A stretch of 64,000 bases of DNA from Thraustochytrium aureum (Eukaryota). Position numbers and translations under genes: made by a program. How positions within the stretch are numbered: the stretch's first letter is position 1; each line of letters begins with the position of its first letter. The DNA is taken from the NCBI GenBank assembly GCA_012862495.1, contig BLSG01000162.1, forward strand, positions 115,789-179,788, read 5' to 3'. Below, piece after piece: positions 2,150-28,032 of the stretch. The notes beneath the pieces were generated by a model. It searched no databases, was not told where the DNA came from, and saw only the letters and a list, made by a program, of their open reading frames with translations.

Positions 2150-4308
2150 CTACTTGCGCTGGGCCCAGTAGTCGCGCAGGGAGGTGCCCGAAGCGGCGAG
2201 GTCGGCGAGCAGCTTGCTGGGCTGGAACTGCCAGCCCGGCAACTCCGGCGAGCGCTCCAAGTGCTTGCGCAGGGCCTCGGCAACGGCCGGCAGACCGACA
2301 ACCTGGTCGGCGTAAAACATGGGAGGGCTGTAGCGCGGAGCGCCGTATCCGGCGCCCCAGCAGACGTCAATGTCGGAAGGGCGGCTCGCGATGCCCTCCT
2401 CGAGAATGCGCATGCCCTCGTTGACCATGGGGTACAGGCATCGCTCGAGTATCTCCTGGTCGGAGATGGCGTCGGCGCGCGCGGCGACGCCGTGCTTGGC
2501 ACGGTGGTCCTCGCAGAGCTGCGCCACGACGGCATCTTCAACGGGCTTGCGGCCGTCGTACGTGTACCAGCCGGCGCCGGTCTTTTGGCCGAGGCGACCG
2601 GCGTCAACGAGAGCGTCGGCGAGAGCCATCCAGGTGGCGCCGCGGCGGCCCTGGACGTTCTCGGGCGTGTGCGGGAAGTACGACTCGCGGCGGATCCGGT
2701 ATCCGATGTCGTTGCCAGCGAGGTCTAGAACCGCGAGGGGGCCCATGGCAAAGCCAAAGTTGTAGAGCACCCTGTCGATCTGCGAGGGGGAGGCGCCCTC
2801 CTCGAGGAGGCAGACGGCCTGCTGCACGTAGGGCTCGAACATGCGGTTGCCGATGAAACCAAAGCAGTTGCCGGCGAGCACGGTGGTCTTGCCAATGGTC
2901 TTGCCCATTTTCATCGCCGTGGCGATGGCGGCAGCGCCAGTGTGCGTCCCGCGCACGTTTTCGAGGAGCGGCATGACGTTTGCCGGGGAGAAAAAGTGCG
3001 TCCCGATGAGCATCTCGGGCCGGCCGCTGGCCGCGCCGATGACGTCCACATCCAGGTATGACGTGTTGGTGCAGAGGAGCGTCTCGTCCTTGCAGACCTT
3101 GCCGAGGCGCGAGAAAATGTCCTTCTTCAGGTCCATGTTTTCGAAGACGGCCTCGATGACGGCGTCGCAGCCCTTGAGCGCGCCAAAGTCGGCGTCGAGC
3201 GAGCCGGAGAAGAGGCCCATGCGCTGGTCGAGGTCGCTCTCTGTCATCTTGCCCGAGCGAAAGGCGGAGGACTTTTGGTAGAGGCCCTTGATGGCGCCTT
3301 TGCAGGCGTCGAGTGCTTCTTGCGAGGTCTCGGAGAGGGTGACGGGGATGCCGCGGTTCATAAAGCACATGGCGATTCCGCGGCCCATGGTTCCGCCGCC
3401 GATGACGCCAACGCTCTCGATAGGGCGCGCGGCCTTGGCGTCGACGCCAGGCACCTTGGAGCACTCGCGCTCGGCGAAAAACATGTACTGCATCGCCTTG
3501 GCCTGGTTGCCCGCCATGAGGCCCTCGAAGAGCTCTGCCTCCACCTGGAGGCCGGCCGCGAAGGAGGGCGCCTTTTCCGCGCCGGCCACGGCGTCCACGA
3601 TGCGCTGCGGGGCCAGCTGGCCGCGAGCGCGCTTGGCGAGCGTGGCCTTTGCCTGCTCGTAGACGCTCGGGTCGGCGGGGATGACCTTGCGGGCCGAGAT
3701 GCGCGGCAGGCGCGCGGCGTCCGGGACGGCGAGTACGGTCTCGTGGACAAACTTGAGCGCGCCTTCGAGGAGCTCATCTGGCGTCTTGCCATCCACCAGG
3801 GCGTCGACGAGGCCCATCTTGTTCGCCGCGGCGCGGGCACGGGGCGGCCGCTGGTCATCATGTCGATGGCCGCCTCGACACCAACGACGCGCGGGAGGCG
3901 CTGTGTGCCGCCAGCGCCGGGCAGGATCCCCAGGTGGACCTCTGGGAGGCCAAGGCGCGCGCTCGGGAGTGCGACGCGGTAGTGGCAGGCGAGCGCGGTC
4001 TCCAGGCCGCCGCCCAGGGCGGTGCCGTGGATGGCGGCCACGAGCGGGATACCCGACTCGTCAAACTCGCGAATAACCTGGTTGAGGTCAGGCTCATCGC
4101 GCCACGCCCCAGTCGCAAACTCTGTGATGTCCGCTCCCGCCGGAAACGTGGCGCCATCGCCCATCACGACGACGGCCTTGGCACCGTCGGCCTTGGCCTG
4201 CTTGAGCCCCATCAAGAGCCCATTTCGCACGGCCTTGGAGAGCCCATTCACGGGTGGGTTGAGCGCGCTTACGACCGCGACGCCGTTCTTCAACGCGTAC
4301 TTTGACAT
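2150..4308 (-). CDS. Bifunctional enoyl-CoA hydratase/3-hydroxyacyl-CoA dehydrogenase (EHHADH/MFE1-like), one frameshift near 3830
   Basis: Crotonase motifs (NPPVNGL, FPAGADI, ALGGGLE, GLPEVHLGILPGAGGTQRLPR) in ORF 3358-4470 continue into the HADH motifs (VIGGGTMGRGIA, EAVFE, NTS, THFFSPAN, GFIGNRM) of ORF 2150-3817. Confidence 0.92.
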
Positions 4309-12428: not shown

Positions 12429-14807
12429 ATGCTGGCGATGCAGGTCAAGGAGCGGCGGGAGGCGCTGGCGAGGAAGGAGCGGCAGCAGAAGAAACGAAAA
12501 GGAGGGCAGGAGCGGGGGCGCAGCCACACGAAAAGAGCGAGGGGGCACGAGTGCCAGTTCCCCGAGGCGAGAGACATGGTTGTGCTCGTGGTGCCGTTCC
12601 TCGCGTTTACCAAGATGATGGCGAAGCGCGCGACGGACTACCTGACCTCGAAGGGCGTGATCGTCGCCGAGCAGTGGGACACTGAGGTCTCGCACCTCAT
12701 CACCTCCGCCAGAGCGACCAACAGCCAGCTGGAAACCAAGCTGGGGATCCCCGTCCTGGAGCGGACCGGAATCGAGCTCATCTCGTCAGACTGGGTCCGC
12801 GAGCTTATCGACAAGGGCGTCTACGTCGACTGGCGCCAGTTCATGGTCCGCCACCTCCGCGAGCCAAAGCCAGAGGCCCTCCCGGCCGTTCCCACGCTCA
12901 CGTCTGCGTCCTCGTCCAGCACCAACTCGTACAGGCGGGCACACGCCGACATTTTCGACACCTTTGGGTCTGCGAGAGACGAGTTCGGGTCGCGCATGAT
13001 GACCGCGACGCAAGATGACGACGATGGCGCGGACGACCACGAACTGGACGCCCTCCCGCACGCCGCTACGATGGTCGAGGCCGAGAGCGACCACGACGAG
13101 GAGGACAAGGAGAGCAATCCAGGCGAGGCCAGCGGTGCAGGTGCCGGGCATAACGGAGCGGCTTCCGCCGCTCGAGCGGGCCAAAGCCGAGCGCGCACGC
13201 AGACGTTCAGCGACGACACTATCATTGAGGCCACGCCCGAGAACGAGGGCGGCGCAGAAGTCCACTCCGCCTCCCCGCCGCCCTCGAGTCAAGACGGCGC
13301 CCCTTCAGAGTCGCAACCGCACGGGCCGCACGCCGCGGCCCCCGAGACGCGGCGAACGACGCGGCGAATGGCAAAGCAGGCCGACGAGGGTGCAACACTC
13401 AAGCTGAGCGTTGAGGGAACGCCCGATGCGCCGCCAACGAGGCCAGACCCCTTTTTAACAGCACCAAAGCGCGAAGTGCCGAAACGGTTGGCAAGCACCT
13501 CGCGGGTTCGCGCGGCGTCGCACACAAGCACGGCCAATCGTGGCGTCAAAGAGGTCGCTCTGCCGGCCGCCCGCGGGCCCAAGCAGGGCGAAGGCAAGGC
13601 CTCCCAAGCTATCCTGAGCTTTTCCGAGCTGTCGTGCTCGTCGTCCTCGAGCTCCTCAAACTCGATCGCCGCCAGCTCCGCGGCGCAAAGGAGCGCCTTT
13701 CGAGCTGCAGAGCTTGCCGCGCTCCGGGCCCCAGACGCACTCGAGAGCTTGCGGCCGCTATTGAAAGCGGCGATCGAGTTTTACGAGGCGAGCTCGTGCA
13801 ACGTGGACTCCGCCTCAGACCTGGAGGCAGACCAGCTCGCCGTGCGCAGCGATTTGCGCCTCTTCTTGCGCCTCTTCTCGGCACGCCGAAATGGCGCAAA
13901 GCGCGAGGAGGCCGTGCAAGCCTTGAGCCGCCTGCCGCTTCTTGATCGCGCCAAGGCGGAGGAGCTTGTTGACGCTGGCTTTACGACGATCGACGACCTA
14001 CGCCGCGACAGGTCTTACTTGAGCGTGTATCAGCGCTCGGCGTTGCGCTACGCTGAAGACCTGGTCCAACCAGTGGAGAAGGAGGAAGCGCAGGCAATTT
14101 GGGCGCAGGTTGCCTCTGCGGCCACCGAGGTCTTCACGCGCGGGATGACGACTGTTTTCCTGCTCGGCGACTTTAACCGCGGCCTCGCAACGAGCAACCG
14201 CGTCGAGCTGCTCGTTATGGATGTGCAGTCCAAGACGTGCCCGCGGCTGGCCCGTCTTGTCAAACGGCTCAAGGACAAGGGGCTCGTGCTAAACACACTC
14301 GGAACCTCGTGCACCACTGTGGGCGGGGCGACGGGGCCCTTCCGCGAGACCCTCTTGGCGACGGAAACGGCAGAGTCCAAGCAGGACGCCTTCGAGCGGT
14401 TCGAAGGGATCTACCGTGCTACGCCTGACGGCACCGCGCGCCATGTCCACGTGGTTGCCTGCAGGAAGGACTTTGTGGCCTTCTCCAAACTCCTGCTGAC
14501 GGGCGACCAATTCTTCGTCAAAGCCCTCCGCCAACGGGCGGCCGACCGCGGCTTGGAGATGGACTTTCATGGCTTGTACCACGCCGACAACGGGCTGCGC
14601 GCTGCGGAAACGAAGGGGCTGGGCAGCGAGGCCGAGGTGCTGCGGTACCTTGGCGTCCCCGAGCTCGACGCGGTGAACCGCACGTTTGCGTCCGAAAAGG
14701 AAGCGGTGGATGTCGTCTTGCACGGCAAGCAAATCTGCCCCAACGCGCAAGAGCGCACCCTGACAACTGGCCAGCTCGCCGACGCCTTCACGCAGGACGG
14801 CCACTAG
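12429..14807 (+). CDS. BRCT domain + family-X DNA polymerase-like protein (Pol lambda/mu architecture), catalytic residues degenerate
   Basis: BRCT-like (WDTEVSHLIT...ISSDWVRELI), HhH (LSRLPLLDRAKAEELVDAGFTTIDDLRR), palm GDFNRG, thumb LLTGDQFFVKALRQRAADRGLEMDFHGLY...SEAEVLRYLGVP. Confidence 0.82.
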   Translation: MLAMQVKERREALARKERQQKKRKGGQERGRSHTKRARGHECQFPEARDMVVLVVPFLAFTKMMAKRATDYLTSKGVIVAEQWDTEVSHLITSARATNSQLETKLGIPVLERTGIELISSDWVRELIDKGVYVDWRQFMVRHLREPKPEALPAVPTLTSASSSSTNSYRRAHADIFDTFGSARDEFGSRMMTATQDDDDGADDHELDALPHAATMVEAESDHDEEDKESNPGEASGAGAGHNGAASAARAGQSRARTQTFSDDTIIEATPENEGGAEVHSASPPPSSQDGAPSESQPHGPHAAAPETRRTTRRMAKQADEGATLKLSVEGTPDAPPTRPDPFLTAPKREVPKRLASTSRVRAASHTSTANRGVKEVALPAARGPKQGEGKASQAILSFSELSCSSSSSSSNSIAASSAAQRSAFRAAELAALRAPDALESLRPLLKAAIEFYEASSCNVDSASDLEADQLAVRSDLRLFLRLFSARRNGAKREEAVQALSRLPLLDRAKAEELVDAGFTTIDDLRRDRSYLSVYQRSALRYAEDLVQPVEKEEAQAIWAQVASAATEVFTRGMTTVFLLGDFNRGLATSNRVELLVMDVQSKTCPRLARLVKRLKDKGLVLNTLGTSCTTVGGATGPFRETLLATETAESKQDAFERFEGIYRATPDGTARHVHVVACRKDFVAFSKLLLTGDQFFVKALRQRAADRGLEMDFHGLYHADNGLRAAETKGLGSEAEVLRYLGVPELDAVNRTFASEKEAVDVVLHGKQICPNAQERTLTTGQLADAFTQDGH

Positions 14808-15644
14808 CCGGACGCCCGCCTGCGAATTCGCAGATCACCTTTAGAAGTCCCCTTTGCGCGCGTTAATGTTATTCAATTCCCCTCCGGCCTCCCTCCCCAT
14901 CGAACCCAGTGCCGGCGCGCAACCGGCGCACAATTGGGCCTGAGCATCGCGAGCCAGCCATTTCCCCTACCTAGCTCCAACCACGCAAGCCTGCGTGACG
15001 CGGTGTCCTCGGGAAGGCGGAAACTGAGCCGTCCCACGGGCAGCTCTCTATAGCTGGAGCTCGACCCTTGGAGAACACAGAGGGGAGGCGCTGGTCGTCG
15101 ATCCGACTTGTCGAAACCGTGACCTCGAGCCTCACCACCACGGCCTCGCGCGGCGGTCGCGTGCAGTGGCGGTCTTTCCCGCGACTCGAACGCAAAGCCA
15201 AACCAAACAACAAAGTCTGCAATTCGATTGAGCTGTGAAGGTCATCATGATGGCTTGGTCCTGGTGTCATGTTTCCGAGTCGCTTGCTCGCGTACTTACT
15301 TTCCTTCTTCCGCCTCTNNNNNNNNNNNNNNNNNNNNNNNNNNNNNNNNNNNNNNNNNNNNNCCTGCACCTGCAACAGCGGAGCGCGCCACCGAAAGAGC
15401 GAGAGGAGCGCGCACACCTCCAACCCAACCCAACCCAACCCGGCGGTTCAGGGTCCTTTGAGGTGTGCCGACATTACGAGCGGTCTTTCTCGCTTCCGTC
15501 GCTTGGGCTTTCAAGGGGCAAGCGAGCGGCCGAAGTCTACTTGCGTGAGCACAGCCTGCAGAAGACGGCTGCCATTTTCGCGGGCAAGGCTCTGGTGAAG
15601 CAAGTCATCAGGTGAGAAGAGCGGCAAGGAGAAGGTGGGAAGAC

Positions 15645-15765
15645 AATCGATCCGTCGAGCAACGACCGCTCGATCGATCCATCGATCCGTCCAGCAACCA
15701 ACGATCGATCGTTTCTCGTCCGGTCGATCGATCGATCCGTCGATGTCGGTGTCGAGTATCGATCG
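15645..15765. repeat. Low-complexity (ATCG/GATC)n-rich tract upstream of the ankyrin-SAM gene
   Basis: Many ATCGATC units within about 120 bp. Confidence 0.6.
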
Positions 15766-16000
15766 GCAGGCGCCCGGCAGACCTGCAACGCGACGCGAGT
15801 CGTCATTGTTGCGCCCTGGCTCAGTTGCCTGCGAAAGCGCCTCGCGAGCAGCTCGCAGGACGCGGCTCGCTCGTTGTGCAGCTCGTTGGCGGGGCTGGAG
15901 CGTCGGGAGGATGGTGGTGGCGGCTGAAGGCGTTGGACGTCGTGTTGAGGTGCTGACGCGGACTGCGGCGCGTGCGAATGGCGATGCCGCCGGGAAGTCG

Positions 16001-17071
16001 ATGCTGGCCTTCGAGGAAGGTGCCGGCGGGAGCTCGAGCGCCATGATTTTTGCGGCCGTTCGAGCTGGGAGGGGAAGCGACGTCGCGTCGCTCGCGACGG
16101 CCGGTCTGGCCGTTGATGTTCCCGACGTAGCTGGCATGACCGCGCTGATGCTGGCAGCCAAATTGGGCCATGTGCATGTCGTCAAAGCGTTGCTTGACGC
16201 CGAGGCTGCCGTGGACAAGTCCAAGCCAGACGGAAGGACCGCTCTCATCTTCGCCTGCGAAGAGGGCCATGCTGAGGTCGCAGCGGCGTTGCTCGACGCC
16301 GGCGCAGACGTGAACAAAGCCAAGGCGGGGAAGAAGACCGCGCTGATGCTCGCTGCTCAAGACGGCCACCTCGACGTTGTCAAGGTCCTGGTTGACGCAG
16401 GCGCGGCTGTTGACAAGACCTGCGCGGCTGGCCGGACCGCACTAATGTATGCCGCCAAACAAGGCCACGCAGGCGTCGCGCAAGTTCTGCTGGATGCCGG
16501 GGCAGTTCCGGACAGGGCCGACGCAAGCAGGTGGACGCCGCTCATGCTCGCAGAACGAGCTTGCCACCTCGAGGTGATGTACGTGCTGCTTGGCGCAGGC
16601 GCGAATGCGGATTCGGATTTTTTCGGCGTCCAGGACGGCTTTCCCGCCCCTGAAGTTGAGGAGTTGCTCACCTGGCACAAGACCAGCCCTATTGCAAAGG
16701 TCCTTCGGGAGCTGCACATGCACCGGTACCTGGAGCAGTTCCGCAATTTCGACGCGACTGCAGACCTGGCCTCGGCCATGCGGTGGAGAGACGAAGATCT
16801 TGAACTATTTGTTGGTATCAGCAGCGAGGCGGACCGCGCCAAGCTCCTCGCTCGATTCTCGGGGAACAGGCGATCGTCGCCGATGTACAGGCTGCTCCGG
16901 TGGTCGCCTCCCGAGGTAGCCGTCGAGCTTTGGGCGAAGAACCGAAACAAAGATGAAGAAGCTTGGGCTTCCACTGTGCAAGAAGAGCAAGAAGCGGGGA
17001 GGGTTTGCGCGGCAGAAAGGCCCCGCGTAGTCAAGTGCGACCCGCGCAGCGGCGGCAAGGTTTGGGTTTGA
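16001..17071 (+). CDS. Ankyrin-repeat protein with C-terminal SAM-like domain (start uncertain; 15911 is an alternative)
   Basis: About 5 ankyrin repeats (GMTALMLAAKLGH, GRTALIFACEEGH, KTALMLAAQDGH, GRTALMYAAKQGH, WTPLMLA), then IAKVLRELHMHRYLEQF...DEDLELFVGISSEADRAKLL (SAM-like). Confidence 0.85.
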   Translation: MLAFEEGAGGSSSAMIFAAVRAGRGSDVASLATAGLAVDVPDVAGMTALMLAAKLGHVHVVKALLDAEAAVDKSKPDGRTALIFACEEGHAEVAAALLDAGADVNKAKAGKKTALMLAAQDGHLDVVKVLVDAGAAVDKTCAAGRTALMYAAKQGHAGVAQVLLDAGAVPDRADASRWTPLMLAERACHLEVMYVLLGAGANADSDFFGVQDGFPAPEVEELLTWHKTSPIAKVLRELHMHRYLEQFRNFDATADLASAMRWRDEDLELFVGISSEADRAKLLARFSGNRRSSPMYRLLRWSPPEVAVELWAKNRNKDEEAWASTVQEEQEAGRVCAAERPRVVKCDPRSGGKVWV

Positions 17072-17159: not shown

Positions 17160-18604
17160 TCAAATTGCGATTGGTTGTGTTTGGTTGGCGGTCGATTGAG
17201 GTGGTTGCGACGGGGCAGCCGCCTGAAGTAGAGCAGCAGGTTGCGACGGGGCAGCCGCCTGAAGCAGAGCAGCAGGTTGCGACGGGGCAGCCGCCTGAAG
17301 CAGAGCAGCAGGTTGCGTTGGAGCAGCAGCTTCCACTGCAGCAGCCTGGGGCGGGGCTGCAGGTGCAGCGACATCTTGGGGTGGGTCAGCCGGTTGCGGC
17401 GTGGCAACTAGCTGCGACGCGCCGGTGGCGCCCAAAGCAGCAACGGGTTGCGAGACCTCGAGTCGGGAGCAAAATGCAGTCACATACGCAGAGACAGGTT
17501 TGGCTCCCTTGTTGGTGAGCGTCACTGTGACGCGACCCGGCCCCGTAGCTTGCCTTGGGTCCAGGCTCGCGGACATAGACTCGTACGCTACCTGCTTTTC
17601 CCCGACGGCTTGATCACCCACCTTGACGGACGCTGTGACTTGGCCCTCACCAAGCAAGAGGACCTCAAGGGTCAGTTTGTGCGGCCCAGCTGGGACAGCC
17701 ACTTGCACAGCGTCCTGGCCAGCCACGGCAAGGTCTAGCAATGTCGTGTCCTCCCGCTCTGCGGCAGGCAGCAGATTTGGCGGAAAGTCTGTCGCCACGC
17801 CACCCAGAAACGCTGGCACGTCAGAAGCTTTTGCGCCGAGGCTCCGGATGAACGGACAGGCATCGTGGGCGTCGGAGCGCGACGAAGTGTGCCGCGCCGG
17901 GCAGATCGCCTGCTTGGCCACCGCTTTCTTGCTCTGCAGCTTGTTCACAACCTTGATGATGTACCGCAGGGCCGTCGGCACGTTGATGAGCACAGCCTTC
18001 CCCAAGAGCTGCGGGTACACGTCCATGCTCAAGTGTGAGGCTAGGCCGAGGCCCTTTGAGAACTTGCGGTTGGCATCAAACAGACTGAACCCGTCCATGT
18101 CAATGACGTTGATCACTTTGACGATGCGCCCCGTGGCGCGCGTCGCTGCGTCGCAGCGCTGAAAGCCGAGCTCGTTCGACCCCATCAGGCACAGCACGAC
18201 TTGGTCCAACTCTAAACGTCGCATCAGCCCGTTTGTGTTGCTCTTCGACGTCCGGACGACAAAGACGGGGCTCTGCGAAGACCCGATGTGGCTCACAAAC
18301 CCGACGGCCTGAAAAACCTTGATGGTTGACGCAACCGGATGCGACTCTCCCCTCGCTGTGGCGTGCAGGAGATCCAAGTTGGCTTTCCTCCACGCGATGC
18401 AGCGCCTGAGCGGCCCTGCGGCCTTCTTCGGGTCCTCCTTGAACGACAACAGATACCGCAAGAAGAACAGGTCGTCCACAGGCGTACCAACGTCGCCGGC
18501 CTGTTCCACCTCGGGCTTGACCAACTCCTTGAGCTCGTCAATCTTCGCGCGCCTCGCTTCGACCAGCTCGCTCACCAGGAGCCCCCTCTCCCGTCGACCT
18601 CCAT
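17160..18604 (-). CDS. CRAL-TRIO (Sec14-like) lipid-binding protein with a beta-rich C-terminal domain and A/P/Q-rich tail; probable frameshift just after the start
   Basis: DDLFFLRYLLSF...CIAWRK (CRAL-TRIO N), VIDMDGFSL, VYPQLLGKAVLINVP. ATG at 18604 joins the long frame if one G is added to a G-run. Confidence 0.8.
17200..17317 (-). repeat. 36-bp coding tandem repeat, about 3 copies (PSQPAALLQAAA)
   Basis: GGTTGCGACGGGGCAGCCGCCTGAAGCAGAGCAGCA repeated on the + strand. Confidence 0.9.
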
Positions 18605-19167
18605 CGTGCCAAAGGACGACCAAACCAATCACCAGCCTTCGCGCAGCTCGCGCGCCACCACGACGACGACCTTGCTGCGGCCACGAGCGCAGGCCGTGTG
18701 GGGCCTTCTTGGTGGTGGTTTCGCCAACACCGCCCAGGCCAGAGCGAGGTGTCTGCGCCGTGGCTGCGGTGTCTGCGACGTGGCTGCGACGTGGCTGCGA
18801 AGTTGCCAAAGCCCGCCCGCCCGGCACGTAGCGAAACAGGTCTGTTCGTCTTGTGCCGCTGTGCCGCTGAATCGAGCTCGGCCATCGGCCAAACACCCCG
18901 CCCCGCTCACGCGGCCTGAGTGGCAGAGCAGCACAGGAGATCTGCCGAAGGCCCTCGTCGGGGTCTGCCCTGCCGCCGCAATCCAAGTCACCTATAAATT
19001 TATGGCGCCTTATCAATAAGGTGATGCGCCGTTTCACCTATAAATATATGTACAGAAGCTGTGCTGTCACCTTAGTAATTCGGAGCGGACAGAAGATACG
19101 GAAAAGGGAACGTCGCAGTCTGTGCAAGACCAGCCAACCAAGATTGGTGTTGAGGTGTTAGTTCTGC

Positions 19168-21255
19168 CTACTTGTGGTGTGGTCGCAGGTTGCCTTGCAT
19201 GTGGAAGTCCACAAAGCACGTCACTGCACGTTTCTTGACACGCGAGATGTGTAGGGCAACGCCGCAGTCCTCGCACTTGTACGCTGACTGGCCCTCGCAC
19301 ACTACGCAAGTGGATTGCCGGGCCACAGTGGCTACCACACCCTCGGCAGAGATGCTTTGGCGTTGGCCAACGGGAACTGGATTGTGCTTGAAATTCTTTG
19401 AGAGGCGAAGACGTTTGGCATCGCCCTCGTCAAACTGCTTTCGAAGGCTGCTGATGGACCTCTTCGAGCTTTTGCGCACCTTGGCGGCATCTGCTTCGGA
19501 AACAAAACCTTCCATCGGCGCGCTGGGCACGGAAGGCAGTACTCCTGTCGTCGATTTCTCAACGATGCCCGCGGAATCGCTGTGCTCTACCAGGGTCGTC
19601 GATTTCTCAACGATGCCCGCGGAATCGCTGTGCTCTACCAGGGTCGTCGATTTCTCAACGATGCCCGCGGAATCGCTGTGCTCTATCAGGGTCGTCGATT
19701 TCTCAATGATGCCCGCGGAACCGCTGTGCTCTATCAGGGACAGTGCGAGCTCCCTTGCAAACTCGGTGGCCGAGATTATCTTGTTGCACTTGTTCCTGAA
19801 CGAACTGAGTTTGGCGAACGGGAATTGAAACGCCCCATCGTCGTTTGTGCACGCTTTGATGATGCGATACAAGATGAACGCATTGCTCGCAAGCTGTCGA
19901 ATGCCACGGAACGCCAAAAGTTGCTTCAGCCCGAACTTGAGTGTTGCTGGGGTCGTGAGCGCAGCACCAAACTGAGTGTGACCGTCCAACCCGCCTTTCA
20001 GCGCGTTGTATGCAGCCTGGGAGTAAGACTTGAAAACGTGCACTGGATGGAGTGGCCCAGTTCGGCGAATCAGTTTGCGTAGCGCCCGCCACAAGCGCAA
20101 GTGTGAGGTCAACCGCTCGCAAACGGTCGCACCAAAAATGGAGGGGGGGCTTGGCGGGGACTGATTCGCGGTTGTACTTTGCCCCGAGCCGCTGTCAGCG
20201 GCCGCGTCCGCTTGCTCGCCGTGACCAACACTGGCGTGCGCCCAACCGAGAAGCGGCTCAAATTGAACAAGCGCGGCTTTGAACGCTTCGCGCGCAGATG
20301 ACGGCACGGTTACCAGGCAAGCGTATACTAGCTCGGTAGTGCTTCCTTCGACGTAAACGACGAGTTCCACGTCAAGCACCATGGCTTGGTGCAAAACTTG
20401 TCCACGACGCTCAGATGGAACTGCATCCCACCAACCGTCGTCGCCGACAGTGCAAGCGAAATATCTGCCCCTCTGCTGCGCGACAGACCGTGCCCTAGCG
20501 AGTGGCGTCGGTGCCGACCGTGTCTTGAACTCGACACTCGCGAGGGCCGCCTCGACTTGTGGACCCGCATTCGGCGGGACAACCATGGCCACAGCGTCAC
20601 ACGAAACCGCTAGGTAGGGTTGGGACTCTCGAGCAAGGAGACCGACGTGGTAGATCTCGTGGCACCACGTCGAGCGCTGGAGCACCTTGAAAAGGTTGTC
20701 TTCATTGATGGTGTCGCTCTTCATCATTTGAGTGGACAGCCCGCGTGCAAAAAGCCATGACCTGGCAAGGATTTCTGCGCCCATTTCCAGCAACTCCGCG
20801 TTGCTAGTACCCCTCATCTGTGTCAAGCCCACCGCTGGTACAGAGGCGCTCGTGTTGTCATCTGTGCCGCTTCTTGCCTCGACTCCTTCAGCTCCGCTCT
20901 CAGGAAACGCAACGCTGCCCTCGTCGACGCTCTCGGCATCACTTTCGGCTGCACTGCTGTCNNNNNNNNNNNNNNNNNNNNNNNNNNNNNNNNNNNNNNN
21001 NNNNNNNNNNNNNNNNNNNNNNNNNNNNNNNNNNNNNNNNNNNNNNNNNNNNNNNNNNNNNNNNNNNNNNNNNNNNNNNNNNNNNNNNNNNNNNNNNNNN
21101 NNNNNNNNNNNNNNNNNNNNNNNNNNNNNNNNNNNNNNNNNNNNNNNNNNNNNNNNNNNNNNNNNNNNNNNNNNNNNNNNNNNNNNNNNNNNNNNNNNNN
21201 NNNNNNNNNNNNNNNNNNNNNNNNNNNNNNNNNNNNNNNNNNNNNNNNNNNNNNN

Positions 21256-21286
<31 letters not shown>

Positions 21287-23166
21287 TCGTCGCCGCCTCC
21301 ATTTGTGCTGCGGCTGCGAACCAGCTGCGCGATTGTGCTTCTGCTGAGCTGGTCGCTGGAGATCTCGCCTGGAAGCGCCGCATCGAGGCCGCCTTGCGCC
21401 CGGTTTGTGACGGAAGGCCCGCGCACAAGCAGCGCTCGCGCTTGTGGATCCAGACGTGCCAACCGGCCGCTCGCCGTTCCCGTGACGCAAAAAAGGCGAG
21501 CAACAAACCAGTCAGCCGAGCGCTGCCAGCAAGTGATTGGGAGAACACCTTGCTCGCGGAGCTTGCTCTCGACCTTGCGGAGCTCTGCACTCTTCCGATC
21601 GCACGGGAAAAACAAAACGACCTTGGCCGGTTTGATGCTCTCTGGAATCGCCTTTTGGTCGAAGCAGACCGTCCGCATAATCTCGTCGCTGATGGCCGTT
21701 CCAGACTCGAGAAAACGCACAACGTTGCCGCCCTTGGCTGCTTCCCTGGCCTGATAATCCCGAAACGCAAGGGCGTGCACCACCTTGCTGGTGTCCCCCA
21801 CGCGGACAGTCGCACGTGCGGCGAAGAGCTCCCTGCCGAGCTGCGGGTCGTCACCAACCACAAAGCCCGCTTCGACAGGGACGTTTACTTTCTCCGCCCG
21901 CGCAATGACGTTTTCAACCGTGTCTACGAGAGGGCCTGGGCTGACATTCAACCTCTTCTCCGTTGCAACCACTTTTTGGAGAAGCTCTGAGAGCGGCACG
22001 AACGGGTGCCAAGCCTTCTTCACAGTCGTGATGAAGCTTACCTCTTTTTCAGTCAGCGCAGACCAAAAACGGTCCTTGCTGTACCCGTTGTCTCCGGTTC
22101 CAATAGTGCCACGGATCCGCCCACCAACACCATCGATCTTGTCCATGTCCTCGAGCAACTCGTCAACAGCGCAGTCTTGGATGTAGTTGAGGCGCTCTTG
22201 GTGCCGCACTGCATACGTAATACGCAGCAGCGAGTCGGTCACCGCGTCATTCTTCGTCCCGTCCTTGCCTGCTTTGCGGTGGCTCACGGCTCGCTTTTGG
22301 ACCTCTTCGGAGCGAGGCCCAACCAGCTCGTCATCCACAACGAACTGGAGTGAATGCGACAAGGTCAGGCGACGAGTTGACTCAAAAAGCACCCGCTCAA
22401 ACGTGCGGACATTCGCGATGGTGTCCTCAGTTTGACCAAAGCGGTCGCCCGCGGCGGCTTCGGTGGCAGGATCTGTCGCTTTGGTGCATCTGATGATGGC
22501 GTGGTAGCGCTCCACGCTGGGAATCTTGGCCGAGGCACGCCCAACAATCTTGGCGATGTCAGGAAGGAGGTTCTCGCTGGAGGTGTTGTACACTTGATGC
22601 ATCAAGTACGACCCAACAAAGCCGAGCATCTCGCCAAAGTCCAACGCATCCCTTTCCGCCCCAAACATCTCCTCGCGAAGGCGCTGGTTTGTCCAGGACA
22701 TCATCGTCTCTAGAAAGCGACGGGCCAGGACCATGAAGACGTGGAACGGGGAGAGCTTGCTCACATCATCTTTCAACAGGCAAAACTCTGCCTGGCAGCC
22801 ATGAATGACTTGCTCGAAAATGTCCTCGCACTGGCTTTGGAGACGCGGCACGAAGAGCTTGTCGATCGCGTCGCCCTGGGACATGAGCTCATATTCGTCA
22901 GGCTCCGCGCGCCTCTCCCAGCGCAGCGACTTGGTCCTGAGTGTCGCTGTCGGGGCGTTTGGCGCGCTGCCCAGTGCGTCGCGCTCTGCCTCGACCCCAC
23001 CGGGCCCTTGGACGTTCTGCCTGTGGAGTGGGCATTTTCTACTGTTTGAACGTCTGTGGTCTGTCCTTCCGCACTTCTTGCAGGCCTCCGCGCGTGCCCT
23101 TGGCGGAGCGGCTTTTGACGGAGCCCGCGAGCTGCGAACGTCGCTCTCCAGCCCCGCACGCTCCAT
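19168..23166 (-). CDS. piggyBac-like DDD transposase with inserted YqaJ/lambda-exonuclease-like domain, N-terminal CxxC-H-C knuckle and C-terminal Cys-rich domain (gap at 20962-21255)
   Basis: VVDDELVG (D1), GDNGYS (D2), YNALKGGLD (D3). Between D2 and D3: WQRSADWFVARLFCVTGT, GLLARESQPYLAVSCDAV, VEFKTR, GQVLHQ. C-terminus CVVC...KCEDCGVALH...CFVDFH. Confidence 0.8.
19547..19738 (-). repeat. 48-bp coding tandem repeat x4 (LVEHSDSAGIVEKSTT) in the transposase ORF
   Basis: Near-identical units starting at 19547, 19595, 19643 and 19691. Confidence 0.92.
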
Positions 23167-26100
23167 TGCGCCGCGGCGACCGCGCTCAGTTAACAACTCA
23201 GCAGCACCGTCCCACGTACCCTTCCAAGCCAGGGTCTGGCTTGGGCGATCGCTTGCGGGCGTCCTGGGGCAGCGCAGATGGCAAGGCGCAGCAGCGCAGA
23301 TGGCTCTGCGCGCTCGCCCCAGCGTTTCTGGGGCTGGCAAAACGCACAGATTCGAATGATTTCATCCATAGATTTATAGATTTAGGGATGAGGAAGAAAA
23401 GAAGTGTTCGTCCACCTCATCTATGAATTTATGGACCAAACTGGTTCTGACGACTCTTGACTCCGGCTAGTCCATTCGATCTTAAACTTGACATTCAATA
23501 TCATAATATCATTGTTAAGCAACTGTACTCTTGACTGTCAAGGAGCTCCCGTCGGTGCACACTCTGATCGCACAAGAGGCGCACTTCGAAAGGAAAGCTT
23601 CCTGCAGAACTCAGCTTTCAAGGCGCCACTATAACCCCTCATAACCCACGCTCGTCTCGCGGTCGCCGGGAGGGTGCCGATCGCGGTTACAGATATTCCC
23701 GCGCGGGATGCGCGCCGGCGAGCGTGCGTCCCAGATTGTTTCGGGACTGTTTCCCGCTTCCTTGTTCGTCGGCGGCGGGTACGGTAAGGCGCTTTCGCTC
23801 CGCCGTGGTGCGGTCGCGCGGTCTGGCTTTTGTGAGGCGTAGTTTTTGCGGGGTTTTACCTTGGCCGCCCTGTTTTGCACCGCCTCCTCCTGCAGGCGGC
23901 GCAGGGAAGCACGCCCTGGGCCTACTAGTATCTCTTTCACGACGGGTGACGGGTGATGAGTGAGTGACACGGATTTCCCACGATCATGATGAGATACGCT
24001 TATGCGCTCGCTCGCTTGCTTTTACTTGCTCGCCCGCTTGCTTGTACTTGCTCGCCTGCTTGCCTGCTGGCTTGACAGGCGGCGCAACGGCTTCAAGAGC
24101 CGAAAGGAGAAGAGCCGAAAGGAGGAGGACGCCCTCCCTCACAAAAGCGGCGGAACTGGTATATGCCGAAGCTGGTGCCTTGCGAAGGAGGAAGCTGAAG
24201 AAAGCAAGGGCTCCTCTCTCCTCCGTGTTGTTTTTCGTTCGCGCCCAGCAGGGCCGCTCGTCCTTGTCGGTGGCCCGCGTAACCTCCGCCTCTCAATCAA
24301 TTCAAAAGCAAGACGAAAAAAAGAGGAAAAAGGAGAAAAAAAGAGCAAAAACCAAAGCCTCTAGCTAGTGCTTCGGCTAAACTACCCGATAAACTCCCGG
24401 GAGGAAGTCCCGCGACAAGGCTACAGCTCGGATAATCTATTCTCTCCAGTCGAGGAATGTCCGAGGGGAAATACGTACGTCAGAGAAGATGCACGATCGG
24501 AAAAAAGGACTCTGTCCACCCGCGAGGAAGGAGGCGGCCTGAAAGTGGACAGCAAGTTTCGCGCCGCACTCCTCTGTCCGCTGCGACGGCGATGTGAGGA
24601 GGGCTTTGTGGTTGATTGCCCGAGAGGGCGTTCTGGTACTGCGCGACAGCGTACTCCCAACACTTGGGCCGTTCAAGAGTCGCTTTTAAAAGCTGGCCAG
24701 GTCGCGGCCGCCCCTCAGGGCCCGGGACCCAAACTGAACCAGAACGTGTTGGGCCGCACATGCGATAGCGGCCCCTGTCTCCACTTGCAATCCGCGCGTC
24801 CCCTTAGGTTCCTTGGGCTGGAGCGCCCAGGTCCGCTGGGAGGCGCGCTTCCCCAACTGCTTCTTTTTAGCCTTTTAGCCTCTCGAAAGAATTGTTTTTA
24901 GCTTTTTAGCTTGAAGGCCTCGTCACGTACAGTTGCTGGTACTCTACCGAGGGGAAGAAGGAGGGAGAGGGAGGGAGGGAGGGGCTCGAGCGAGGTCTTC
25001 CTCCTCCCGCACGATGGCGGTTGCGACGATGCCGACGACATGCAAGAGCAGGGTACTTGCCCGTGCGGCGCCTCTCCGACTGGGCAGAGCAGCCACTGGC
25101 TGGCGGGCGTGATCATGCATGCANNNNNNNNNNNNNNNNNNNNNNNNNNNNNNNNNNNNNNNNNNNNNNNNNNNNNNNNNNNNNNNNNNNNNNNNNNNNN
25201 NNNNNNNNNNNNNNNNNNNNNNNNNNNNNNNNNNNNNNNNNNNNNNNNNNNNNNNNNNNNNNNNNNNNNNNNNNNNNNNNNNNNNNNNNNNNNNNNNNNN
25301 NNNNNNNNNNNNNNNNNNNNNNNNNNNNNNNNNNNNNNNNNNNNTCCTCGCCGCCGGCGTCTGTTTTTTTTCCTTTTCTTTTTCCTTCGTCGGCTTGGCT
25401 TGAATCGTGCTGGGCAGCCAGGACCGCAGCTGGCCGGAACTCCACTCGGGGAAACCTTCGAGGGCGCGCTCAAGACTGCGCGGCTGCAATCCCTCCCGCC
25501 GCCTAGCCGCTCGCGCCGCCCATCAGCAAGCAGCAGCGAGGGCTGCAGCAGCTGCTTGCCGAGCGTCAACCTGCGTTGTCTTCTTGGGTGTCTGATCAGT
25601 CTTCTCACAGCAGCGACGAGCCGGCCAGGCAGGCAGGCAGGCAGGCAGGCCTCTGGGCGAGGTTCTTTCCCGCTCGGGCCGCGCTTGTCCTTCTCTGGCG
25701 AGGTGCAAGTGGAGGAGTTCCAACTTGGCTTCAACAGGTCAGTGGCCACTTTCCTCAACGCCTCCCTCCGAGGCAGGCAGGCTCCTCATTCGCTCCGTGC
25801 CGCTGCGTGCGTGCGCGGCCAGCAACTGCTTTTCTCGCCTGGTGAGCGATTGACCGATATCGATCGACCCGTGTCCCCCACTTGCGTCTCCCTCCCTCCC
25901 TCCCTCCCCTCCCTCCCTCCGCGCGCCACTCTTACGCGCAACAATCACTCAACACGCTGCAGCTGTCGTCAGGCAGCAAACTCAACCTGCGCAACCAGAC
26001 ATCGGAGCAGAACAGCAGCGGAAGAACAGCAGCAGACCAAGCAGAACAGCAGCGCCAGCAGCAGCCAGCAGCAGCAGCAGCAGACGCGAGTTGAACAGGG

Positions 26101-26395: not shown

Positions 26396-28032
26396 ATGCC
26401 CCCTGGCCAGGAGCCTGTCGCCGTGTCAGTGGCGTACCAAGCCACCCCTGGGCGAATGTGGCCAATGCCGCACGCCCCCCGCCGGGCGCGGGGGCCGAGT
26501 TCCTCCCAACCGCGTACGAGCGCCGCGACGTGGCCCACCTCCTGGCCTCCAAGCTCTCGCCCGAGCTGCAGGCTCGGATTGACCAGATCAAGGAGACCGT
26601 AGGACTCCTGCATGTACTCAAACGGCGAGATCGAAAAACCTGTGCCGTGGACCCACTTCATTCTGTCAGCGCCGCCATCCAAGGCTGCCCCCGAAGCGTT
26701 CGCCCCGGTCACCGACCTGGTCGTCTGGGCGCCCGAAACGCTCTTCAACCGCGCAGGCCTGCAGTTCATGCCCTGCCCATGTTGCGGCAACGTCGGCAAC
26801 AATGTTATTACCAACGGGTGGGGCGAAAGCCCTTGCCTTTTGGTCAAGTACCAAGACAAGCTCCTCTGCCTCCTGAGCAAGGAGTATGTCTGCAGCCGCT
26901 GCGACACGGTCTTCCGGGGATGGAACCCAGACGCGATCAGTCACATGCCCCTCCGACTGGCAAACCTGTTTCCGGTGCCACGTTCGGCGCTTTCCGACGA
27001 GGCCGAGCGCGCGCTCTGCGCTGTCGAGCGCGAACCGCCGCAGGACGGCCCGGCGATGTTCGGCCGCTCCACGAGCCTCTCCAGCCTCGCGCTTCTTCGC
27101 GAGGGTGGCGACTCTGACTCTGAGTTTCTGGACACTTTCAGCGACTTTGGCATGCTCGAAGAGCTCGAGCAGAGTGACAACGCTGGCGCAGCGCCGCAGT
27201 ACAGCGCTGTTTTCGAAGGCTCGTCTTCGTCCTCCTCGTCTTCATCGGCGCAATTTCCGTACGGTGAACCGCTTGCAAGCCTTGGCGGCTCGGCGGCACG
27301 TGCAGACCAAGAGCCGTTCGGCTCTTTCCCGGAGCTCCGAAACTTCGAGGAGTTTGTCGTTCCGGCACCGCAGGCCACCACGTCTATGCAGCGCAACCTC
27401 GAGTTCCACCNNNNNNNNNNNNNNNNNNNNNNNNNNNNNNNNNNNNNNNNNNNNNNNNNNNNNNNNNNNNNNNNNNNNNNNNNNNNNNNNNNNNNNNNNN
27501 NNNNNNNNNNNNNNNNNNNNNNNNNNNNNNNNNNNNNNNNNNNNNNNNNNNNNNNNNNNNNNNNNNNNNNNNNNNNNNNNNNNNNNNNNNNNNNNNNNNN
27601 NNNNNNNNNNNNNNNNNNNNNNNNNNNNNNNNNNNNNNNNNNNNNNNNNNNNNNNNNNNNNNNNNNNNNNNNNNNNNNNNNNNNNNNNNNNNNNNNNNNN
27701 NNNNNNNNNNNNNNNNNNNNNNNNNNNNNNNNNNNNNACTTGACCTCATTCCAGAAGTGGCCCGCGCCGCTCTGCTCGAGGACGTGGGCGAGGATGTCGC
27801 TGATACGAGTATGGCGGCTGCGAGTCTGAGCGAGAGCAAGCGCTCGATTCAGTTTTGCTCGGTCTGTTTTGGCGTGCGTCGTCAAAGAGGACAGCTGGTT
27901 GGCGGTCACAAGCCGAACGGGTTCTGCCCCGCGAAGGGGCGAAAGGCGACGGCAGATGAAAAGCGCGAGCTGCGCCGTCGCCGGCAGAAAATGAGGCGTG
28001 CCATGAACAAGCGCCGCGGCTCCACCGAGTGA
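26396..28032 (+). CDS. Cys-rich putative Zn-binding nuclear protein, DUF6729-like or transposon-derived (two apparent frameshifts, internal gap)
   Basis: LVVWAPE...MPCPCC...GW...LLSKEYVCSRC...FRGWNPDAISHMP..LANLFP; after the gap, FCSVC...GH...FCP followed by a basic tail (RRRRQKMRRAMNKRR). Confidence 0.5.

Follow-up and report, generated by a model that had tools for sequence, protein, structure and literature searches.

A predicted lambda-exonuclease-like domain nested in the catalytic core of a piggyBac-type transposase

Can a cut-and-paste transposase house a second nuclease inside its own catalytic core? The question is raised by an open reading frame (ORF) in a 64,000-nucleotide stretch assigned to Thraustochytrium aureum (contig BLSG01000162.1, positions 115,789 to 179,788; hereafter the window). 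A sequence-only reading had proposed that this ORF encodes one polypeptide carrying a piggyBac DDD core, with a YqaJ or lambda-exonuclease-type domain between its second and third catalytic aspartates (D2 and D3). Relatives, contigs that bridge an assembly gap and two structure models all bear out this proposal, and a piggyBac-type DDD transposase with a nested lambda-exonuclease-like domain is almost certainly what the ORF encodes. Judged from the sequences compared, the nested architecture is that of a widespread family and not a one-off.

Domain order and predicted structure

The ORF begins with an ATG at 23166 and ends with a stop codon at 19168–19170 on the minus strand, and its frame is free of stops from 23361 to 19171 when codons containing N are read as X. 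Along this single frame lie the piggyBac D1 (D278, codon at 22335) and D2 (D359, 22092), the YqaJ/lambda-exonuclease domain (R557 at 21498, E822 at 20703, D857 at 20598, E879 at 20532 and K881 at 20526), D3 (D1061, 19986) and a Cys-rich tail (Table 1). By codon position, all the motifs listed in the sequence-only reading fall in the order and places it had given, in one minus-strand frame.

Table 1. Features of the transposase ORF, its flanks and its neighbours (window positions).
Feature	Position	Strand	Basis or remark
piggyBac-type transposase ORF with nested YqaJ/lambda-exonuclease domain	19168..23166	minus	1331 codons, 98 in N gap
Zinc-knuckle-like CxxC-x4-H-x7-C motif, N-terminal, residues 29–45	23032..23082	minus	pattern match
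Helical DNA-binding/dimerisation part and RNase H-like core with D1, D2	21967..22929	minus	family profile aligned to piggyBac 123–369; model
Three beta-strands after fifth core strand, likely retained piggyBac insertion domain	21703..21831	minus	model strands E367–377, E380–391, E402–409
Nuclease N-terminal part QRxxxW..R....TGT; predicted 5'-phosphate pocket R557, T562, T564	21442..21537	minus	match to LHK-Exo
Variable acidic loop within nuclease, with poly-Asp run and assembly gap 20962–21255	20770..21441	minus	relatives' alignment
Nuclease core: E822, S855, D857, E879, K881, QxxHQ; D818 at conserved-Gly site	20095..20769	minus	lambda exonuclease match of model
Return to transposase: YNxxKGGxD helix with D3 and C-terminal half of DNA-binding domain	19732..20049	minus	profile aligns from piggyBac residue 432, D447 in register
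Tandem repeat in linker before Cys-rich domain: four in-frame 48-bp (16-residue) units	19547..19738	minus	
C-terminal cysteine-rich domain CxxC..CxxC..LH..CF..H	19201..19308	minus	aligns to C-terminal domains of 6x67 and 9c0f
14-bp near-palindrome, two copies downstream of stop	18992–19005, 19038–19051 (span 18988..19051)		candidate transposase binding sites
14-bp near-palindrome, two copies upstream of start	23366–23379, 23421–23434 (span 23366..23434)		candidate transposase binding sites
CRAL/TRIO-domain gene, ordinary host neighbour	17163–18614	minus	Pfam
Ankyrin-repeat gene, ordinary host neighbour	15599–17068	plus	Pfam
Family-X DNA polymerase, ordinary host neighbour	12429–14804	plus	Pfam

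A profile built from 102 family sequences aligned with Trichoplusia ni piggyBac (6x67) at E=3.5e-24 in two pieces, residues 123–369 and 432–594, which places D278, D359 and D1061 in register with piggyBac D268, D346 and D447. Between the two pieces, the profile weakly matched mimivirus R354 and LHK-Exo. An AlphaFold model of window residues 80–1145, with the gap as X and 101 sequences in the alignment, had a predicted local distance difference test (pLDDT) score of 80.6 and a predicted template modelling (pTM) score of 0.82, and was of low confidence only in the gap-bearing loop. The model superposes on piggyBac 6x67 with Z 27.5 and a root-mean-square deviation (rmsd) of 3.7 for 374 residues over model positions 31–1066, on both sides of the insert, and on lambda exonuclease with Z 15.6 and rmsd 3.7 for 207 residues over model positions 465–945 (window residues 544–1024). 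Both matches recurred with a model of P0004, a gapless relative (piggyBac Z 24.3, lambda exonuclease Z 15.5).

The modelled transposase contains a split helical DNA-binding domain and, after the fifth core strand, a beta insertion domain. Since 374 of the 395 positions of 6x67 residues 117–511 align to the model, most of the 62-residue piggyBac insertion domain appears to be kept, and the nuclease, of about 270 residues and an additional variable loop, lies between it and the D3 helix. Both folds are predicted, with the transposase core closed around the insert, and D1–D3 should lie close together by superposition; the AlphaFold check suggested in the sequence-only reading thus came out in its favour. 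Alignment with LHK-Exo assigns the putative 5'-phosphate pocket to R557, T564 and S855, and the equivalent of lambda Q157 would be one or the other Gln of QxxHQ; the pocket residues described in PMC3239189 are Arg12, Thr17 and Ser19 of LHK-Exo and R28, S35, S117 and Q157 of lambda exonuclease. The YqaJ 'QR' motif noted earlier is present, but the predicted phosphate-binding Arg is R557 (in WFVAR) and not the Arg of 'QR'.

The ORF is interrupted by an assembly gap of 294 N at 20962–21255, directly after a (GAC)n poly-Asp run, in a nuclease loop that varies from 24 to 241 residues in 41 relatives. The length of this gap is a scaffold estimate, and so is the frame across it; no contig bridges the gap of the window copy itself, and the bridging contigs all belong to a sister copy of about 86% identity. 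Between 20946 and 21406 the scaffold has 459 letters, and a 2551-base contig of the sister copy crosses this interval with 150; in another run of that study, a contig has 145 letters where the scaffold has 454. Both are 309 bases shorter than the scaffold, so the sister reading frame is continuous across the gap. Because of these in-frame bridges, and because gapless relatives have the same domain order, the gap is not a mis-join. Each side of it already holds parts of both transposase and nuclease, and the fusion is independent of the gap length, as had been argued. That the protein is an artefact, either of unrelated sequences scaffolded across the gap or of a chance fusion, could be entertained because the gap lies within the ORF and its length is an estimate; set against the bridging contigs, the gapless relatives and the presence of both domains on each side, it can be practically dismissed.

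In the comparison of the two copies, 30 of the 40 differences listed (out of 475) are on third codon positions, and among the same 40, 27 of the 39 changed codons are silent. The linker repeat region is 144 bases shorter in the sister copy, the length of three units. Among the sequencing-run contigs, none was found that joins both flanks across the element.

A family of nested proteins

A word-based search returned four relatives at 32–42% identity: P0004 (1068 amino acids, encoded without gaps on one contig, L001), gene models of Hondaea fermentalgiana and of an assembly labelled Durusdinium trenchii, and a metagenome protein. A profile built from them retrieved 1402 representatives at E<=1e-3, 594 at <=1e-10 and 115 at <=1e-30; 150 hits were inspected, and the 1402 may include ordinary piggyBac or YqaJ proteins. 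Among the 150 listed hits, 42 hold D1–D2, the nuclease core and D3 together, in the nested order in all 42, and none holds D1–D2 and D3 without the nuclease; this count used sub-profiles built from the same sequences and is biased to that extent. The phage exonuclease family phrog_434 was matched by six of seven relatives, and a RecE-like phage exonuclease family by five of the seven and not by the window half. The N-terminal CxxC-x4-H-x7-C pattern, expected from its sequence to bind zinc, occurs in the window protein and in 12 of the 150 hits (7 of the 40 hits of at least 900 residues).

Named members among the 24 representatives looked up come from Hondaea, Fistulifera solaris, the Durusdinium-labelled assembly and marine protist transcriptome entries. 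Both the transposase and the nuclease tree group the window protein with P0003, P0012 (Hondaea) and P0018, and its host is therefore likely thraustochytrid-like. Word-based protein searches with P0004 or the family alignment returned P0004 only, and pattern or tblastn searches of low sensitivity found no relatives in viral contigs, prokaryote genome contigs or annotated phages. The search for multicopy relatives advocated in the sequence-only reading thus yielded a wide family and a sister copy, and within the 64-kilobase (kb) window the family profile finds this copy only. Public gene models of P0003, P0005 and P0012 fuse the family member to an unrelated neighbour and bear the neighbour's name (FKBP/MIP, histone acetyltransferase and cytochrome c peroxidase); these fusions are likely gene-prediction joins that hide the family. 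A SAP DNA-binding domain is found in P0117 (residues 613–645) and P0146 (522–554), within the same variable nuclease loop.

Conservation was assessed on the window protein and 41 hits of at least 900 residues, with 7 cluster-mates and all shorter hits left out and with P0003, P0005 and P0012 trimmed of their unrelated domains. The transposase triad is kept in 32 of the 42 sequences, the nuclease E-D-E-K set in 33 and both sites in 30. Phosphate-pocket positions are more uniform (R/K557 in 39, T/S562 in 40, T/S564 in 39 and S855 in 41), and the four Cys columns of the C-terminal domain are kept in 32–35. Domain order, the single chain and the joint conservation of both active sites are thus read directly from the aligned sequences. 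Median pairwise identity to the window copy is 31–42% in the nuclease motifs versus 22–28% in the transposase core. Between the transposase and nuclease trees, distances are correlated (Mantel rho 0.65, p=0.001, 40 sequences), which fits a single old fusion.

The window copy keeps all seven catalytic residues and deviates at 3 of 81 conserved columns, N360, A858 and D818. A858 is common to seven relatives. N360, next to D2 where the family norm is DRGY, was considered as damage and rejected, as piggyBac itself has this residue after D346. The copy is nearly intact, though its nuclease may be weakened by G818D. Some full-length members have lost catalytic residues: P0021 (Hondaea GBG31278) lacks D2 and keeps the nuclease set, and P0147 (Fistulifera GAX20624), P0018, P0063 and P0148 have losses in both sites. 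These are candidates for domesticated genes.

The 4184-base contig L001, which encodes P0004, has a perfect 14-bp inverted repeat at 69–82 and 4127–4140, with weaker flanking similarity and an alignment score of 43 versus a shuffled maximum of 34. These are probably sub-terminal repeats belonging to a complete element, and they suggest that members of the family are genuine elements some 4.2 kb long. Around the window copy, a 14-bp near-palindrome occurs at four sites in the 64 kb, two per side and all within about 270 bases of the ORF; 0.02 sites are expected by chance, a flattering figure given that the pattern was drawn from these very sites. Since the Cys-rich domains of piggyBac bind a palindromic sub-terminal repeat (described in PMC7351741), the near-palindromes may be transposase binding sites; alternatively, they could serve as a promoter element for the transposase gene and its CRAL/TRIO neighbour. 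An exact 18-base match to the end motif in four viral contigs was dismissed as chance, as these contigs have nothing else in common with the element and are of about 30% GC.

What the nested nuclease may do

In piggyBac excision as described in PMC7351741, nicking and hairpin formation free the element, the flanks keep complementary 4-nucleotide 5' overhangs that permit seamless re-joining, and the insertion domain lines the target-DNA channel. The nicking chemistry implies that the flank ends would carry a 5' phosphate. A 5'-phosphate-dependent exonuclease tethered at the end of the insertion domain would most simply act at these donor-flank ends. The proposal is that the nuclease, joined just after the insertion domain, would remove the 5' overhangs at the donor flanks and thereby block clean re-joining of the donor site. 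The break would be channelled into homologous repair templated by the sister chromatid or the homologue, and this repair would copy the element back, for a net gain of one copy per jump, a logic that can be likened to the restorative homing discussed for TnpB and Fanzor (PMC13565253). The nuclease is very probably active in the family. Donor-end resection as its role is put at slightly under an even chance, and the explanation that combines the family, the nested nuclease and donor-end resection is evenly balanced between right and wrong.

Several observations weigh against this account. The halves of the window protein matched PF13843 only below its Pfam cut-off (E=0.0065, 16.3 bits versus 22.4) and YqaJ not at all, and a solved-structure search with single halves gave only repeat-driven or weak matches; the domain assignment therefore rests on relatives and structure. 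The profile check put forward in the sequence-only reading gave no match above the cut-offs for the window halves, and did so for part of the family: among 38 long relatives, 10 pass PF09588 (YqaJ), 6 pass PF13843 and 2 (P0034 and P0044) pass both, and 20 match neither at E<=0.1. One or more of the seven catalytic residues are missing from 12 of the 42 long members, some of them truncated gene models. The window copy has D818 in place of a Gly kept in 36 of 41 relatives, and the only other Asp is in P0147, a member that has lost catalytic residues. Among supported splits, 9 of the 12 in the transposase tree recur in the nuclease tree and 4 of 9 do so in reverse. No terminal inverted repeat was found around the window copy (best inverted alignment 37, versus a shuffled mean of 32 and maximum of 47), nor a TTAA pair or target duplication, and 18800–19167 contains no TTAA. 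Lastly, lambda exonuclease is a processive trimeric ring (PMC3239189) and piggyBac a dimer (PMC7351741), so that a tethered domain need not be capable of long resection.

This last point lends some weight to a nuclease that acts on the transposon's own ends, where it would trim the short 5' flap that hairpin opening or strand transfer leaves, or cut the non-transferred strand, and so ease integration and repair without long resection. Hairpin opening does leave a 4-nucleotide 5' overhang at each transposon end (PMC7351741), the residues of the 5'-phosphate pocket are conserved, and a nuclease tethered in a dimer is better suited to short trimming than to processive resection; the model also weakly matches Dna2 and MGME1, both solved with 5'-overhang DNA, at a Z of about 8 that is near the noise level of the tool. 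Against it, the flap is reported to be dispensable for piggyBac reactions in vitro (PMC7351741), which makes it hard to see why flap trimming would preserve a 270-residue enzyme across a family whose median pairwise identity to the window copy is 22–42% by domain. Flap trimming is judged improbable, though worth keeping in view, and donor-end resection would be preferred to it. A nuclease that is a passenger or a mere DNA-binding clamp, without a catalytic role in transposition, is far less credible still: its residues are lost in 9 of the 42 members and its activity is predicted from sequence, but the other 33 retain both metal ligands and general base, and its motifs are better conserved than the transposase core.

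A different doubt concerns the window copy. It may be a fixed, host-kept (domesticated) or recently immobilised gene that no longer moves. The undetected terminal repeats and target duplication point this way, as do degenerate members in named genomes (P0147 and P0021), near-identical pieces of the window copy in sequencing runs of five studies, and G818D, which recurs in another study, in a contig without differences over 20569–20836 whose run could be the source of the window. Against it stand the seven catalytic residues and the Cys-rich domain, all retained with so few deviations at conserved columns, the sister copy coexisting in the same sequencing runs, and the near-palindromes on both flanks. 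Loss of mobility is considered unlikely, and somewhat more so than flap trimming.

Known elements and the surrounding window

The family resembles piggyBac (T. ni, 6x67/6x68), piggyBat (9c0f) and PF13843 in the register of its DDD triad, in a helical DNA-binding domain drawn from both sides of the core, in the beta insertion domain and in the C-terminal Cys-rich domain. It differs in length (about 1000–1450 residues versus 594 for piggyBac), in the additional nuclease before the D3 helix and in DRGY as the norm at D2. With lambda exonuclease, LHK-Exo and YqaJ (3sm4, 1avq, 3syy; PF09588; PHROG 434) it has in common the predicted fold (Z 15.6 and 14.5), the PD-(D/E)xK set and the 5'-phosphate pocket. 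Those enzymes are separate proteins that form trimeric rings and act together with an annealing protein, whereas the window nuclease sits inside a transposase.

At least two other groups of eukaryotic DNA transposons, ISL2EU and KolobokE, have taken up lambda-exonuclease domains. In KolobokE (Kolobok superfamily), the lambda-exonuclease-like nuclease lies downstream of the DDE domain of a different transposase (PMC9587614), whereas that of the window lies between D2 and D3 of a core whose best fold match is piggyBac. ISL2EU (PHIS superfamily) has a YqaJ exonuclease of a role stated as unknown (PMC4482050, PMC4122938). It is carried there in a separate second ORF, beside an IS5/Harbinger-type transposase with a THAP domain and an AT target, in contrast to the single ORF of the window.

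The family may be already catalogued under another name. There is about an even chance that Repbase holds it as piggyBac-X, a class that we take to be defined in non-animal eukaryotes. The label DNA/PiggyBac-X, for a divergent piggyBac class, occurs in a Plasmodiophora preprint. A full-text literature search, which covered neither Repbase nor its classification review, found no published description of a nuclease nested in a piggyBac core, and the words 'exonuclease' and 'YqaJ' are absent from the main text of PMC5381638. It is possible, if doubtful, that these proteins represent an undescribed and widespread protist lineage of piggyBac type with an end-resecting exonuclease in its core, which would cut, resect and copy back, and that they are the first DDD/E transposases with a second working nuclease within the triad.

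The nested nuclease bears on how an element that excises without trace gains copies. It sits within a structurally solved, well-studied scaffold, so that a single point mutant, put through the usual excision and integration assays, could reveal its role. Its position also indicates that piggyBac can accommodate a large enzyme where the insertion domain ends, and this natural fusion point is of interest to designers of piggyBac tools. The family that carries it is large by representative count, yet Pfam detects it poorly and gene models with false joins conceal it.

The window itself is GC-rich eukaryotic DNA, in which neighbouring frames match the CRAL/TRIO, ankyrin, DNA polymerase X, RGS and USP7-like families (Pfam; nine frames, two without a match). 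The assembly is a short-read scaffold with 18 N gaps in the 64 kb, several of them adjoining simple repeats. None of the sequencing runs listed as containing the sequence is an RNA run by label. Runs X1–X3, of one study and guessed to be RNA, cover the transposase ORF and the neighbouring genes and leave 23416–25599 uncovered, where the DNA-type run X6 gives scattered cover; this is at most a weak hint that the transposase ORF is transcribed. A further Cys-containing ORF at 26603–27829 on the plus strand is interrupted by a gap, and the part before the gap has no Pfam match at E<=0.01. That part is well covered in runs X2 and X3, and from its appearance the ORF may be transposon-derived.

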